From the NCBI GenBank assembly GCA_024683775.1, contig GCA_024683775.1_4106.1: a stretch of DNA of 64,000 nt, one strand, 5' to 3'. Shown one piece after another: positions 962-23,574 of this stretch. The notes under the pieces are model-generated. The model had not been told where the DNA came from. It searched no databases and saw nothing but the letters and a program-made list of their open reading frames with translations. Position numbers and translations under genes: made by a program. Within the stretch, counting starts at the first letter, position 1. Each line of letters opens with the position of its first letter. This DNA comes from a phage.

Positions 962-2086
962 TTAATTATCTAAGCCACCAATTACACTGAACTGTGTGGT
1001 AACGTCTGAACTATTATCTATGTAAGTTCTTCTACCAACATAATATAGTTGTCCTTTTGCTTGAATAAAAGTTACGGTCCCTGTATTAAATGTTATAATA
1101 TCATTGTATGTAATGTCAGGTGGTAGTGCTGCTGATAACGCAGTAACTTTACTTAATGCAGCACTAGTACTACCATTTATACCAGCAGCAATACTACCAG
1201 TACCATAGAACTTATTATCTTTACCAATGAATACGTTGGCTGATGCTTGTGTAGCTGATGTTATTGCCTTACCAATTTGGAATGCGGTTCCTATGGTGTA
1301 TGGTGTGCTCCTGGCAGCGTCTATGCTTTGTGTATATCCATCCCCTAGCTGACCATTAACTTTGTCACCACATGAGTATAGAGTACCATTGAGGCTGTAT
1401 ATGATCCCACGGTTAGAGAAGCTAACAGCTTCTGCATTAGTCCATACTGGTGCGGTGTATGAGTTTACACGACTCGCGGTAGTTCCTAGACCTAGTATAC
1501 CATATGTGTTATCACCACATCCAAACCATTGCCCAGAACTGTTTTGATAGAACACTGAACGTTCTGTTGATTCCATGCGTACAGCATCCACAGCACCACT
1601 TTTAACGAACGAAGTGGATGAGGATGTAGTACCAGTACCCAATGCACCATAAGTGTTTGTACCAATCGCATAGATTGATCCTAGTGGTGTCATAACACGT
1701 ATGCAGTTATATCCCAATTGAACTTTACATTCAAATAGGTTGTCCCATATTTCAGGAACAGCAGAAAATAAATTTGTAATTTCGAACCATGATGTTGTCG
1801 AACCAGTTAATCCTATACTGCTTTTGTTTCCTAAAATGAAAACAGTTTTGTCCTTCTTAATTATCCATGATGATAGGAAACCTATCTCACAGCTATGAAC
1901 ATTTGATTCTATTTGGGTAATATAATACTTAACTGTGTTATCACCCATGAATGCCGCAGCACCGGATGCAAAAAGGTTTCCAGTTTGTTTATTTAAAATG
2001 TAGTTATTGTTTCCATATACACTAACATCATAAGAACTTTCTTGTTTTTCGTTCCCATAATCAAATAACAATACGAAAGGTAACAT
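962..2086 (-). CDS. RCC1-like beta-propeller repeat protein, array member 1
   Basis: 374-aa ORF; N-term MLPFVLLFDYGN; SD AAGGAGA upstream; repeats like GTNTYGALGTG, GDKVNGQLGDG. Confidence 0.85.
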   Translation of the reverse strand: MLPFVLLFDYGNEKQESSYDVSVYGNNNYILNKQTGNLFASGAAAFMGDNTVKYYITQIESNVHSCEIGFLSSWIIKKDKTVFILGNKSSIGLTGSTTSWFEITNLFSAVPEIWDNLFECKVQLGYNCIRVMTPLGSIYAIGTNTYGALGTGTTSSSTSFVKSGAVDAVRMESTERSVFYQNSSGQWFGCGDNTYGILGLGTTASRVNSYTAPVWTNAEAVSFSNRGIIYSLNGTLYSCGDKVNGQLGDGYTQSIDAARSTPYTIGTAFQIGKAITSATQASANVFIGKDNKFYGTGSIAAGINGSTSAALSKVTALSAALPPDITYNDIITFNTGTVTFIQAKGQLYYVGRRTYIDNSSDVTTQFSVIGGLDN

Positions 2087-2163
2087 GATAAAATCTCCTT
2101 GTGTTATACTTTATTTAATCATTTTATAATGTACAATTTTACAGCGATTTAATTGAGGTACTC

Positions 2164-2814
2164 ATGAATAAAAGAAGTAAGTTCTATCAAGAATATTTCA
2201 CTAAACATAAACGATTCACAAAAAAATACTTTACATCATCCCACCGACCAGTTGCAAGTTACAAACGTCCTAATACTAACTATCTTGCTGGTGGCAAGTT
2301 TAGTGCAAAGTTCGAATTACTTATGCGTGAAAAGAATATCAAGATGCATTACGCAGAGACGAGAAAAAACTCATCAATTATTTGCTCTGATTTTCTTGAG
2401 TACGGTTGCTTAACTTATAAATTCAATGATGTATATTTGTATATTGATGTTGATTGTAACAGTACTCTTATGTTTGAGATTTCAATTCACCCAAATCACA
2501 ACCGTTATATAAACATTAACTTGATTGATAAAGTACTGATTGGTATATCTAGTACTGATGGTGGTGGATTTGAATTTATTGCTTCAAAATATGATGAAGA
2601 TTTCGTACTTTACCCAGTACTTGATGATGTGAAAGATATTCTCAATTCATTAAAAGGAAGTCAATACAAATTACCTGAAGAACAGCTATTTCAGTACTCA
2701 CTTATTCATGATGATATCGAGATATACTTAGAGTGTGCGAGAATCTTGGAGTATCTTTATAATGAACTAACAACAACTGGTAAAGTGACTGCATTCACAT
2801 TATATAATATGTAA
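2164..2814 (+). CDS. hypothetical protein with basic N-terminus and C-terminal EEQLFQYSLIHDD motif (EE-FQ family outlier)
   Basis: 216-aa ORF on opposite strand inside the array; SD GAGG upstream; shares the acidic-aromatic motif with the 55.6-64 kb family. Confidence 0.6.
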   Translation: MNKRSKFYQEYFTKHKRFTKKYFTSSHRPVASYKRPNTNYLAGGKFSAKFELLMREKNIKMHYAETRKNSSIICSDFLEYGCLTYKFNDVYLYIDVDCNSTLMFEISIHPNHNRYININLIDKVLIGISSTDGGGFEFIASKYDEDFVLYPVLDDVKDILNSLKGSQYKLPEEQLFQYSLIHDDIEIYLECARILEYLYNELTTTGKVTAFTLYNM

Positions 2815-2821
2815 AAGAAAT

Positions 2822-2841
2822 GCCAGTACTCAAGTACTGGC
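2822..2841. terminator. hairpin terminator (array cassette)
   Basis: GCCAGTACT-CA-AGTACTGGC palindrome; T-rich tract follows on minus strand. Confidence 0.55.
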
Positions 2842-2847
2842 ATTATA

Positions 2848-3981
2848 TTAAACTGGTGGAGAATTATATGGCTCAAATTTATAAGTTGTCGTAGTAGTAC
2901 CAGCAAGGACGTTGTTAGCTAGTATGTACATAGTCCTGTAGTCGATTACCACCACAGTAATACTACCACCAAAAGCATAGTCTGTTATGTTATTAGTGTT
3001 GAATGGTAAATTAGATGAACTGGTCCATGTATTAGCTGTTGTGCTATTTGTACCATTGGAATAGCCGACACTAGATGTACCAGTTGTCCATAAGTTTCCA
3101 TCATTGAACAACGATACATGGTTAGCTGTATATGATTTATTAGGTATAGAACTATCAATTGGTGTATTCCAAACTTTAGTAACCCATGTTGTAACTTCTG
3201 TATTATTAGTAACGCCATTACCTAATGAACCATTTATTGGTATACCTCTTATATAAGAAGTGTTAGTACTAGGGTCAACATATCCAAATGTATATGTATC
3301 AAATGCAAATTGAAAACAATCAGAACTCGGTAATGTGTACAGTAATGTATATGAAGACGTGATTATTGATGAATTTGTACCGTTCACGCCTTGGTATAAA
3401 ATACCACTAGCCAATATTTGATTATTATTTTTTGTTATAGTGTTCATTAACGGATATGTTTTCACATCACGCACATCATTAGTCACATATGTTTGTGTTG
3501 ATAATGCAACTTTACTACCATTACCTATAACCCCTGTATTTGCACCACTCCCATAAAGTGAACCATCATTCAAAAGAACCATTGTAACATTACCATTTCC
3601 CGTAATTGTTTTAATATTACTAACATCCACCGCAGCAAATACAGTTGATGTTAAATCAGTGAAACGTGTATAATGTGATGTTGTGCCATTGATTGGTGTC
3701 GCAAAACCAGAATACAAAATTCTATTTTCTTTGGTAATAAGGAATGTTCCAGTAACACCGTTTGAATGGATATCAATAATATTATCGCCCATTAATACCC
3801 AATCACTTACGAATGTTGTACCAGCACCCAACCCATATGTCGTATTGTATCCACGTCCATACACTCTACCATCACTGAGTAATGTTACCACACATTGACC
3901 ACCACCACCAAGTATAACTTTTTGGATAGTACTCTTTACTTTTACATTCCCGTACTTAACCATTCTTGCAAAAGGTAACAT
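2848..3981 (-). CDS. RCC1-like beta-propeller repeat protein, array member 2
   Basis: 377-aa ORF; N-term MLPFARMVKYGN; SD; G-x-x-x-G-[LV]-G-x-G repeats. Confidence 0.85.
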   Translation of the reverse strand: MLPFARMVKYGNVKVKSTIQKVILGGGGQCVVTLLSDGRVYGRGYNTTYGLGAGTTFVSDWVLMGDNIIDIHSNGVTGTFLITKENRILYSGFATPINGTTSHYTRFTDLTSTVFAAVDVSNIKTITGNGNVTMVLLNDGSLYGSGANTGVIGNGSKVALSTQTYVTNDVRDVKTYPLMNTITKNNNQILASGILYQGVNGTNSSIITSSYTLLYTLPSSDCFQFAFDTYTFGYVDPSTNTSYIRGIPINGSLGNGVTNNTEVTTWVTKVWNTPIDSSIPNKSYTANHVSLFNDGNLWTTGTSSVGYSNGTNSTTANTWTSSSNLPFNTNNITDYAFGGSITVVVIDYRTMYILANNVLAGTTTTTYKFEPYNSPPV

Positions 3982-3993
3982 AATTATTCTCTC

Positions 3994-22263: not shown

Positions 22264-22307
22264 ATTCCCTCCCTTATTCATTATACTATATTTAATCAAA
22301 AAGAAAA

Positions 22308-22326
22308 GCCAGTACTCAAGTACTGG
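22308..22326. terminator. hairpin terminator (array cassette)
   Basis: GCCAGTACTCAAGTACTGGC. Confidence 0.55.
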
Positions 22327-22333
22327 CCTGTAT

Positions 22334-23470
22334 TTAAATTATTGTTGGTAATGGTAATGGTATAAATTCATCACTCGATGGCAAACCATATAACGTAGTT
22401 GCATTTCCAGAATAATACCATCCAGTTGAATCTTGCACTATAGATAGATAGGCTAACGATACCACCTTTGTTATATCATTAAACCCGTGTGGTACTTCTT
22501 TGAATGCAGATGAATATTCAACACCAGGATCACCAGAAGATAGTGTATTGTTAGTACCAGCATAATATAAAGTATTGCCATCTGTGCTTATAGCAAAAGA
22601 AAGAACAGAGTTATTCATATCACTCCACAAATCCCTAAACCTGCCTCTATATCCGGTTAATTCTGTATACGAATATACGTTTGTGGTATTTGAAGAAGAA
22701 TTACCTAGTTGATAATTTCTATTTTGACCTGCTATAACATATCTAGTGATACCATTAGTATCATAATATAATATACCAGAGTTTAATGTTGACATACCAA
22801 CTGCACATTCGGATGCAAATTCGGGAGCAGAGTACAAATTATAAGAAGTTAAATTTGTGCTAGTACCCAATGCTCCAGTATTGCTTATACCACAGCGGTA
22901 GTAACCACCAGTAGTACTAGAATATATAGTACCAGATAGAGAAGTGTAGAATTTTGAAACATTTGACGCAACTAATACAGCATTAACTTTGCTTGTTGAA
23001 CCACCAAATGATTGGTTATTATCATATCCTTTAGCATATAATCTATTATCATTTGTAAGTAATCCTACACAATAATAAGTTATTTTCATTTCACGAACTG
23101 TGCTTAGATTCACTGCACTAAATTGTGTCGTAACATCTTTCCATGTAACAACTTTAGAACTTGTCGAACCACCAGATTCAAACCATTGATCACCACAGTA
23201 GAAAATTTTATTATCTACAGTTAATACAACGCATACTAAATTACTAGCACAAGCAAACTTAACATCATCTCTAACTTTAGTCCACTCGGTTACATTCACT
23301 ATAGTATCAGTTCCTATACCTAATTTGCCATACGCATTATTACCACGCACCCATAATTCATTATCCTCGGTTATTAGTAATAATGAATTAGCACCTGCAA
23401 CAATATCACGTATTTTTAGTTTATCTGGTGCTACGTTCCCGTACTTAACCATTCTTGCAAAAGGTAACAT
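22334..23470 (-). CDS. RCC1-like beta-propeller repeat protein, array member 18 (first transcribed)
   Basis: 378-aa ORF; N-term MLPFARMVKYGN; YGKLGIGTDT repeat. Confidence 0.85.
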   Translation of the reverse strand: MLPFARMVKYGNVAPDKLKIRDIVAGANSLLLITEDNELWVRGNNAYGKLGIGTDTIVNVTEWTKVRDDVKFACASNLVCVVLTVDNKIFYCGDQWFESGGSTSSKVVTWKDVTTQFSAVNLSTVREMKITYYCVGLLTNDNRLYAKGYDNNQSFGGSTSKVNAVLVASNVSKFYTSLSGTIYSSTTGGYYRCGISNTGALGTSTNLTSYNLYSAPEFASECAVGMSTLNSGILYYDTNGITRYVIAGQNRNYQLGNSSSNTTNVYSYTELTGYRGRFRDLWSDMNNSVLSFAISTDGNTLYYAGTNNTLSSGDPGVEYSSAFKEVPHGFNDITKVVSLAYLSIVQDSTGWYYSGNATTLYGLPSSDEFIPLPLPTII

Positions 23471-23520
23471 ATTTCTTCTCCTTTATTCATTATATCATAT
23501 TTACCTCAAAAAGAAAACCC

Positions 23521-23549
23521 TTGACACCCTTTCAGTACTGATGTACTAT
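23521..23549 (+). promoter_or_regulatory. sigma70-like promoter driving the small-gene array (divergent from RCC1 array)
   Basis: TTGACA (23521-26), 17-bp spacer, TACTAT (23544-49); AAGGAG SD at 23561; ATG 23575. Confidence 0.5.
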
Positions 23550-23574
23550 AGAAGGAATATAAGGAGAACTGCAC

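Follow-up and report, generated by a model that had tools for sequence, protein, structure and literature searches.

The window analysed here is a stretch of 64,000 nucleotides (nt) of phage DNA (NCBI GenBank assembly GCA_024683775.1, contig GCA_024683775.1_4106.1), and it carries an array of 18 paralogous genes, u1 to u18, that run on the minus strand from 23470 to 962 and start with M[LI]PF.... A conserved block of ~110 nt, extending from about −75 to +38 relative to the ATG, is repeated along this array and is made up of a predicted terminator, a promoter box, a ribosome-binding site and the first 12 codons. We consider it probable, at roughly three chances in four, that the block combines a terminator, a T4-type late promoter, a ribosome-binding site and a coding head and that it doubles as the recombination substrate of the array. 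Since it is near-identical and stands before bodies that are only ~19% identical, homologous recombination within the array would have no substrate other than this block.

By megablast, the relatives of the window are Asteriusvirus-type jumbo coliphages (PBECO4, 121Q, phAPEC6, vB_Ec-M-J and others). The region at 30-50 kb is 95% identical to vB_Ec-M-J over 100% of its length; the array itself is covered to at most 33% by any single relative, and in every case it is bordered by the same conserved flanks. By Pfam E-values, 17 of the 18 units (962-23470) are RCC1-like beta-propellers with RCC1, RCC1_2 and RLD matches, u15 being without a match, and the PHROGs family of the units is phrog_4219. 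An AlphaFold2 (AF2) model of u12 is an all-beta propeller with a predicted template modelling score (pTM) of 0.79, and Foldseek aligns it to UVR8, RCC1, RPGR and HERC structures with a template modelling (TM) score of ~0.70, so that the repeat signature and the model fold together are those of a seven-bladed RCC1-like propeller. Amino-acid identity among the unit bodies has a median of 19% and a maximum of 50%. The multiplicity of RCC1-like or "DNA condensation protein" genes in Rak2-like and Asteriusvirus phages has already been published (PMC5259590, PMC7247149), and the "DNA condensation" annotation of these units is a name transfer only. By virion mass spectrometry, the RCC1-like gp001 of GAP32 was found in particles (PMC5259590), and six to eight "DNA condensation" proteins, including gp003/005/007/009/549/551, were detected in phAPEC6 virions (PMC7247149).

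Eleven upstream regions in the array hold a complete cassette of 69-75 nt, in which the stop codon of the preceding unit is followed, after 4-8 nt, by a hairpin, a T-run, [T/G]TAAATA-N3-TATAAT, the ribosome-binding site AAAGGAGG (5-8 nt before the start codon) and the ATG. Nine cassettes are canonical and near-identical (u2, u3, u4, u9, u10, u11, u13, u14 and u16), and two are diverged (u5 and u6), with the same layout, an 8-nt loop and GTAAATAC...TATAAT. Five units abut the preceding gene with gaps of 8-12 nt (u7, u8, u12, u15 and u17). An earlier note on this DNA had counted 12 of 18 units behind a ~70-nt cassette and the other six as abutting; the first count stands for eleven units, the twelfth being u1, which has the AT box and the ribosome-binding site without the terminator hairpin, and the second stands for five, since a full cassette lies at 13873-13941 next to position 13942, which had been listed as abutting. 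The corrected list also leaves u18 (ATG at 2086) outside both classes, with its own related box TTAAATAAAGTATAAC. The elements of the block are far more frequent than expected and are confined to the array: the 30-nt AT box has 8 matches when up to 3 mismatches are allowed, every one of them on the array's minus strand (0 expected), the hairpin GCCAGTAC-N2-6-GTACTGGC has 6 exact occurrences (0 expected), and ATGTTACCTTTTG is exact at 16 unit starts with one mismatch at a 17th (20 matches at up to 2 mismatches versus 3.9 expected). A codon alignment of all 18 units gave a nucleotide identity of 0.84 for codons 1-12 and of 0.32-0.48 for every later block, and in the cassette-bearing units identity forms a plateau of 0.6-0.96 from about −75 to +38 with values of 0.15-0.45 on both sides. 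Indeed, the profile along the genes is sharply peaked at the 5' cassette and not flat, as anticipated from the earlier claim that identity is far higher in the cassette and the first ~40 coding nt than in the bodies.

The hairpins, with stems of 7-11 bp, have predicted energies of −10 to −16 kcal/mol, apart from one degenerate copy at −4.8 kcal/mol, and begin 4-8 nt past the stop codon, and a T-run is present in 10 of the 11 cassettes. A terminator scan returned 26 sites versus 7.6 expected, and relatives show compensatory changes in the stem, from GCCAGTAC/GTACTGGC to GTCAGTAC/GTACTGAC and to ACCAGTAC/GTGCTGGT. A G+C-containing hairpin followed by a U-run just past a stop codon has, in silico, the form of an intrinsic terminator, and we infer that this part of the cassette would terminate transcription of the preceding unit. 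The tandem arrangement and the regular spacing would also be obtained from a very recent duplication of whole units, or from an assembly collapse or artefact, but this explanation is refuted by the low identity of the bodies and by the presence of the same units at 93-100% identity in independently sequenced phages, from which it follows that the units are old and real.

The coding part of the block specifies a head peptide with the consensus MLPF[AV]RM[VF][KD]YGN over the first 12 codons, and the synonymous sites of these codons are homogenised in the window far beyond codon bias. Leucine is encoded by TTA in 17/17 heads (48% of Leu codons in the bodies), proline by CCT in 17/18 (36%), arginine by AGA in 16/17 (40%) and glycine by GGG in 13/18 (11%, P = 2e-9). 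Two head haplotypes are present, an A-type, GCA AGA ATG GTT AAG TAC, and a V-type, GTT AGA ATG TTT GAT TAT, with strong linkage of K9-TAC versus D9-TAT (P = 4e-15). Head class is uncorrelated with body similarity, and the closest body pairs, u1/u4 (50%, u1 being the closest paralogue of u4 in the window) and u9/u12 (32%), carry opposite heads.

Comparison with six relatives, vB_Ec-M-J, UE-S1, Turkey3, 121Q, WPEC3 and PBECO4, provided the evidence for recombination; bodies were taken as orthologous at 88% nucleotide identity or more and heads were compared over 36 positions, which gave 89 pairs. Megablast homology blocks have 56 ends within the array, and every one of them falls in a junction zone, these zones accounting for 10.4% of the array length; the ends are spread over 17 junctions. 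Some are situated in a head, 34-51 nt from its start, others precede an ATG by 1-65 nt or coincide with a stop codon, and none is in the middle of a body. In 38 of the 89 orthologous bodies, 4-9 of the head positions differ where ~1.3 are expected, and the distribution is bimodal, with 0-2 differences in 49 pairs and 4-9 in the 38. Depending on the phage, a given body follows a cassette, an abutting junction or the first-position promoter, and unit order and content differ among seven phages, with copy number ranging from ~8 to 18 or more (up to ~19). This copy-number variation fits unequal crossing-over at the repeats; for instance, u7 is missing from vB_Ec-M-J, where the junction lies within heads and the homology block ends 49 nt into the u7 head. 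The exchanged module consists of a body and its own terminator, and the crossover region consists of the T-run, the box, the ribosome-binding site and the head.

Smaller tracts appear to be exchanged as well. UE-S1 has a unique head patch, GGG AGA ATG GTT AAG TAC, on three consecutive units whose orthologues elsewhere are V-type, and since the cassette and body of one of these units are still orthologous, the patch points to a short conversion tract; the UE-S1 orthologue of u5 keeps the cassette unchanged and the body at 95% identity, yet has a G-type head. Similarly, the T-tract variant TTTCTTATTTGTAT is found in 10-11 of 14 cassettes in 121Q/PBECO4 versus 0 of 48 elsewhere. We propose that crossovers between blocks, either of different units or of co-infecting relatives, would delete, duplicate, reorder or replace "body + own terminator" modules, that short conversion tracts would copy the head haplotype of one unit onto another, and that recombination at the boundary between head and body could have fused the head to unrelated bodies. 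The block ends, the head swaps and the synonymous homogenisation support the earlier suggestion of gene conversion or unequal crossing-over at repeated cassettes.

The head is also found outside the RCC1-like family. In relatives, heads and cassettes that are identical at the nucleotide level precede non-RCC1 bodies within the array, namely a Kelch-repeat unit in vB_Ec-M-J (EcMJ_585, annotated as a virion structural protein, at 27254-28159 of the stretch compared), two Kelch-repeat propeller units in Turkey3 (25007-25897 and 25971-26918 of the stretch compared) and a glycine-rich protein of 245 amino acids (aa) at 21868-22605 of the same Turkey3 stretch, which is also present in 121Q (gp243) and UE-S1. 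Identical heads on unrelated folds are not explicable by vertical descent, and the comparison points to the head as a functional peptide that can be carried from one protein to another and to its boundary with the body as a recombination joint.

Part of this conservation is nevertheless due to selection. A tblastn search against phage genomes showed that a wider motif, M[LIF]P[FI]x[RI][IM]xxYGN, is kept in single- or low-copy relatives of other genera, with head starts MLPFSRIIQYGN in GAP32 (single copy), MLPFPIMNKYGN in Serratia BF, MFPIPIISKYGN in Xanthomonas XaC1 and MIPFARIMKYGN in Salmonella Munch. The 12-residue peptide, as judged from these alignments, is ancient and under selection, and because it is retained in single- and low-copy relatives and the cassette is composed of functional signals, part of the 5' identity peak reflects purifying selection. 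Selection on the peptide would most likely maintain it as a docking or virion-incorporation signal common to virion-associated proteins. A scan of IMG/VR for the head pattern returned 121Q itself and one chance match in an open reading frame (ORF) on the opposite strand, and a word-indexed protein search with u4 gave 8 close matches and no distant relatives. In the u12 model, residues 1-19, which include the head, are coil of low confidence (predicted local distance difference test, pLDDT, ~51-71) and lie outside the propeller; this model gives no support to the idea that the head is the closing "velcro" strand of the propeller, but its confidence in this segment is too low to refute it. A T4-like prohead-protease site, [LIV]-x-E, after the head was dropped, as it was seen by eye in some units only (u3, u5 and u16).

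Could purifying selection alone, with no recombination, keep the cassettes and heads alike? Every element of the cassette has a plausible function, and the head motif persists in distant genera whose genes are single-copy and so have no partner for conversion, but the synonymous codons are homogenised well past codon bias and fall into two linked haplotypes, whereas the five abutting copies of Munch keep the peptide with free synonymous sites (CCA/CCG, TTT/TTC, AGA/AGG/CGT and GGA/GGT/GGC). Moreover, 43% of the pairs of orthologous bodies have different heads, the stem sequence itself is conserved beyond what pairing requires, homology blocks end solely at junctions, order and copy number vary among relatives and identical heads occur on non-homologous bodies, so this explanation is largely refuted and retains very little probability. 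Selection at the mRNA level (on translation initiation, low 5' structure or a downstream-box-like effect) is favoured by the span of the identity, from the ribosome-binding site to about codon 12, a region known to affect initiation, and by the use of GGG at Gly11 in spite of its rarity in the bodies. However, the TAC (A-type) and TAT (V-type) haplotypes coexist and are exchanged between orthologues, and two linked, exchanged haplotypes indicate identity by descent or conversion and not convergence on a single optimum; in addition, Munch-type arrays do without synonymous identity, and the conserved T-run, stem sequence and spacer would be left unexplained. As the main cause of the identity over codons 1-12, with recombination as a by-product, mRNA-level selection therefore appears improbable.

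An autonomous mobile element inserting between genes, such as a miniature inverted-repeat transposable element (MITE), a homing element or something similar to the mini-circles of promoter-early stem-loop (PeSL) cassettes, would account for bodies (u12, u15, u17 and u4) that have an upstream cassette in some phages and none in others, and PeSL mini-circles are documented in T4-type phages (PMC2839356). The cassette, however, is confined to arrays, with 57 of 57 matches inside them in 273 kb of array-bearing sequence and none in 50 kb of structural region, and it lacks terminal repeats, target duplications and an accompanying nuclease gene. The differences in its presence are explained by swapping of modules, each a body with its downstream junction, through crossovers in the heads, and a mobile cassette thus seems rather improbable.

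The promoter class of the AT-rich box was assessed from the motifs in the array, in the neighbouring early region and in relatives. A sigma-70 pair (TTGACA-like-N15-19-TATAAT-like) is found in 0 of 18 array upstream regions and in 19 of 42 early-region upstream regions; the early promoters of the phage, at 30-48 kb, are near-consensus TTGACA-N17-TATAAT. Sigma-70 as the primary reading of the box was rejected on this count, there being no consistent pair at the cassettes, in agreement with the earlier note. Conversely, 13 of the 18 array units have TAAATA upstream, at 25-30 nt from the ATG, and none of the 42 early-region upstream regions contains it; (a)TAAATA is present in 19 of 29 upstream regions of the phAPEC6 structural region (major capsid, protease, portal, baseplate wedge and others), where the baseplate wedge gene has the same order of hairpin, T-run (cttttctttttgaa) and TAAATA. 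The variants at u5, u6, u1 and u18 keep TAAATA while the downstream hexamer and the spacer drift (TATAAT, TATAAC, TATAAA), and homologues in GAP32 and Serratia BF have a hairpin, a T-run and GGTAAATAC upstream with TATAAT not kept. The array core has 6 of 8 matches to the T4 late element TATAAATA, with T or G at the preceding position. A late motif ATAAATA and a gp55-like sigma factor have been reported in Rak2-like phages (PMC5259590), the sigma factor for phage CBB, and a late sigma factor is annotated as gp237c in the relative phAPEC6; the gene does not lie within this window. These motifs and the detection of products in virions suggest that the box is a T4-type late promoter, which is consistent with the phage-specific, late-type promoter proposed earlier, by inference. 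Its core, [T/G]TAAATA, would presumably be read by the host RNA polymerase with a phage gp55-like late sigma factor; each cassette-bearing unit would then form its own late transcription unit, and abutting units would be co-transcribed as two- or three-gene operons.

Several observations weigh against the combined promoter and recombination reading. When cassette distances within and between genomes were compared globally by permutation, the difference was not significant (P = 0.2); within-genome distances are inflated by the variant cassettes of u5 and u6, and for this reason we relied on specific shared derived variants. The concerted evolution put forward in the earlier note is thus retained in part: in the strict sense it is local, with the 121Q/PBECO4 T-tract and the UE-S1 patch as examples, and the signal that dominates is one of modular shuffling; a share of the 5' peak belongs to purifying selection. 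The position of block ends at borders is also partly forced, as blocks extend into the conserved cassette and selection removes mid-gene chimeras, and the six relatives are non-independent samples. Virion detection in phAPEC6, which is another phage, amounts to 1-5 peptides per RCC1-like protein (PMC7247149). A literature search returned no usable Asteriusvirus transcriptome or promoter map, and the assignments of promoter and termination rest on motifs. Finally, the array has T/G before TAAATA where the structural-gene consensus has A, and a perfect TATAAT lies 3 nt downstream of TAAATA, so that the box may be a −10-only or mixed promoter.

Indeed, this TATAAT, which stands 17 nt before the ATG in most cassettes, together with the T/G that replaces the A of most structural genes, is what favours a host sigma-70 promoter of the −10-only or extended kind, or an activator-dependent middle promoter, with early or middle expression. 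The box, however, has no −35 and no TG extension, and the array is devoid of sigma-70 pairs whereas the phage's own early promoters are near-consensus. The spacing from TAAATA to the ATG is fixed and it is the hexamer that drifts in variant cassettes, the GAP32 and Serratia BF homologues keep GGTAAATAC and lose TATAAT, and array-type products are found in virions. We therefore regard early or middle expression from such a promoter as unlikely, and retain the late promoter as the preferred assignment.

With respect to the individual units, all of which lie on the minus strand together with their cassettes, the first, u1 (22334-23470; 378 aa), has an A-type head (MLPFARMVKYGN) and a promoter-only upstream region. 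This divergent intergenic region of 104 nt (23471-23574) serves both strands, with a GGTAAATATGATATAAT box and AAAGGAG for u1 on the minus strand and a TTGACA-N17-TACTAT promoter for the gene at 23575 on the plus strand, and the first-position promoter is kept in 6 of 6 relatives irrespective of the body that follows. Cassette 1/2 (22264-22333) has the hairpin GGCCAGTAC-TTGA-GTACTGGCC (−14.8 kcal/mol), a T-run, TTAAATATAGTATAAT and GGGAGG, and precedes u2 (21115-22263; 382 aa; V-type head, MLPFVRMFDYGN), whose orthologues (93-97%) carry V, G, A or A(MMN) heads in cassette, abutting or P1 contexts. Cassette 2/3 (21046-21114; −10.0 kcal/mol) has a short T7 run, and its terminator variant accompanies the u2 body in WPEC3 and vB_Ec-M-J; it is followed by u3 (19918-21045; 375 aa; V-type). 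Cassette 3/4 (19847-19917; −12.4 kcal/mol) leads to u4 (18725-19846; 373 aa; V-type). The variant cassette 4/5 (18652-18724), with GTCAGTAC, an 8-nt loop, GTACTGGT, a T-run, GTAAATACTATATAAT and CGGAG, stands before u5 (17479-18651; 390 aa; V-type), and the variant cassette 5/6 (17404-17478), with TACCAGTAC, an 8-nt loop and GTGCTGGTA (−14.4 kcal/mol), GTAAATACATTATAAT and TGGAG, before u6 (16273-17403; 376 aa; V-type). The next two units abut: u7 (15060-16262; 400 aa; A-type) is separated from u6 by 10 nt with a ribosome-binding site only, and u8 (13942-15051; 369 aa; V-type) from u7 by 8 nt.

In the second half of the array, cassette 8/9 (13873-13941; −11.1 kcal/mol) precedes u9 (12693-13872; V-type), which has one frameshift at about codon 42 that splits it into a 59-aa ORF and a 358-aa ORF, and cassette 9/10 (12623-12692; −16.2 kcal/mol) precedes u10 (11444-12622; 392 aa; V-type). 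The degenerate hairpin (−4.8 kcal/mol) belongs to cassette 10/11 (11372-11443), upstream of u11 (10214-11371; 385 aa; head MIPFARIVKYGN), and u12 (9035-10204; 389 aa; A-type) follows u11 after 9 nt; in WPEC3 the u12 body (99%) is preceded by a full cassette rather than abutting. Cassette 12/13 (8964-9034; −14.4 kcal/mol) and cassette 13/14 (7723-7793; −11.5 kcal/mol; box TAAATATAGTATAAC) precede u13 (7794-8963; 389 aa; V-type) and u14 (6543-7722; A-type), respectively, the latter with one frameshift after which its 264-aa ORF is continued in another frame. The truncated ORFs of u9 are also present in WPEC3 and PBECO4 and the 264-aa ORF of u14 in WPEC3, and since they are shared with relatives, the two frameshifts represent inherited pseudogenes or recoding sites and not sequencing errors; no obvious slippery motif was found at either of them. 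A gap of 10 nt separates u15 (5183-6532; V-type head, MLPFVRLFDYGN) from u14. Cassette 15/16 (5113-5182; −12.4 kcal/mol; box TAAATATAGTATAAA) precedes u16 (3994-5112; 372 aa; A-type), and u17 (2848-3981; 377 aa; A-type) follows after 12 nt and ends at a predicted terminator hairpin, AATGCCAGTAC-TTGA-GTACTGGCATT (2819-2844; −16.1 kcal/mol). Between u17 and u18 there is an inserted gene on the plus strand (2164-2814; 216 aa; phrog_34359) that is not of the array family; this gene and u17 are convergent and have the hairpin at 2819-2844 in common, and it occupies the same position in Turkey3, WPEC3 and UE-S1. The last unit, u18 (962-2086; 374 aa; head MLPFVLLFDYGN), has an upstream region (2087-2163) with the TTAAATAAAGTATAAC box 25 nt before the ATG, AAGGAG and no hairpin, and is followed by a putative terminator, AATCCAGTACTAT-TAT-ATAGTACTGGATT and a T-run (931-957; −15.4 kcal/mol).

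Some units stand apart from the rest. At 449 aa, u15 is the longest; it has the conserved head and no Pfam match at E ≤ 0.1, and may be a very diverged propeller or a different fold. No counterpart at 80% nucleotide identity or more was found in the six relatives for u1, u11 and u13. A weak C-terminal amino-acid motif, F-x-x-[IVL]-x-LP, closes many units (for example at 18725-18760 and 22334-22370), without matching nucleotide conservation.

Other features were noted in and around the array. The most over-represented palindromic hexamer in the window is AGTACT (254 versus 21 expected), and CAGTACTG occurs 56 times versus 0.9 expected. AGTACT makes the stems of the array hairpins and is also found in early promoters. 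Its enrichment extends to the unit coding sequences (34 versus 7.5), where most copies read AGT-ACT in frame, and to the structural genes of phAPEC6 (91 versus 14). The hexamer may serve as a binding site or a recombination signal, or it may result from codon or k-mer bias. Divergent from the array, a run of tightly packed ORFs of ~60-75 aa with almost no intergenic space occupies 23575-28000 on the plus strand, behind the TTGACA-N17-TACTAT promoter at ~23530, and the number of these ORFs varies among relatives.

Among known systems, the PeSL cassettes of T4-type phages (Arbiol et al. 2010, PMC2839356; Comeau et al. 2014, PMC4122927) come closest to the array cassette. Both are repeated intergenic composites, ~70-100 bp long, of stem-loop terminator, promoter, Shine-Dalgarno sequence and start codon, both are concentrated in a hyperplastic region where they bound insertions, deletions and replacements among close relatives, and for both the proposed mechanism is homologous recombination between cassettes, by which genes are moved with their own expression signals. 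The array cassette shares with PeSL a stem-loop able to terminate in silico, the Shine-Dalgarno sequence and start codon at its end and the hyperplastic, indel-bounding location, but it lacks the defining sigma-70-consensus early promoter (0 of 18). Instead, its promoter is non-sigma-70, with no −35 and a late-type TAAATA core, and its hairpin is always upstream of the promoter and followed by a T-run. Unlike in PeSL, the homology reaches 36-38 nt into the coding sequence as an N-terminal peptide, and the genes form one virion-associated paralogue family (with Kelch-repeat and glycine-rich members in relatives) where PeSL genes are unrelated early ORFans; the phage, furthermore, is an Asteriusvirus jumbo phage. 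True PeSL-like early cassettes are present in the window at 30400-48600 on the plus strand; they belong to a different sequence family and precede dozens of ORFs (47-200 aa), with the layout aaaGTACTTGCAA/TTGACA-N17-(c)gTATAATgttttacatc, a GC hairpin GGGGAGAAnnnTTCTCCCC, a ribosome-binding site and ATG. The region that holds them maps within the ~21-kb direct terminal repeat of vB_Ec-M-J.

The head resembles the capsid-targeting sequence (CTS) of the T-even internal proteins (PMC3012670) in being a short N-terminal peptide on diverse, rapidly exchanged virion-borne proteins, but it has no sequence similarity to the T4 CTS and no consistent prohead-protease motif follows it. This comparison is a functional analogy only. 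Tail fibres and tailspikes have conserved N-terminal anchor modules that serve as recombination junctions. They share with the array a conserved 5'/N-terminal part, which in the array is putatively virion-docking, a variable distal domain and exchange at the boundary, whereas in the array the conserved part is only 12 residues long, is present in up to ~18 tandem copies and is attached to beta-propellers with no known receptor role. In concerted evolution, tandem multigene families are homogenised by unequal crossing-over and gene conversion. The array repeats, the copy-number variation, the conversion patches and the lineage variants at paralogous positions are in line with this process, but in the array only the 5'-terminal ~110 nt are homogenised, the remainder of each unit having diverged nearly to saturation, and the partners in much of the exchange are probably co-infecting phages and not copies in a single genome. 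The cassette, the head and the cassette-bounded shuffling are undescribed in PMC5259590, PMC7247149 and the papers on Sharanji, UE-S1 and fEgEco12 and in jumbo-phage overview papers.

Taken together, these data extend cassette-mediated modular shuffling, known for early ORFans of T4-type phages, to a presumably late, virion-associated multigene family of a jumbo phage, in which the homology patch enters the coding sequence. Such shuffling accounts for the fact that, among Asteriusvirus phages that are otherwise 90-97% identical, no annotated genes vary more than the "DNA condensation/RCC1" genes. More tentatively, and as a possibility that we would not favour on present grounds, the head could act as a portable signal for virion docking or encapsidation and the array as an exchange locus driven by recombination. 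Any body placed between a head and a terminator, be it RCC1-like, Kelch-repeat or glycine-rich, would then be made late and carried on or in the particle, and the 110-nt block would let co-infecting Asteriusvirus phages exchange bodies, thereby diversifying a repertoire of virion-borne effectors or adhesins for anti-defence or host range. If true, this would be the jumbo-phage counterpart of the T-even internal-protein/CTS system, equipped with a late-promoter analogue of the PeSL cassette. Together, the head and cassette might serve as a tag by which foreign proteins are expressed late and loaded into virions, and the array is a candidate determinant of differences among therapeutic phage isolates.

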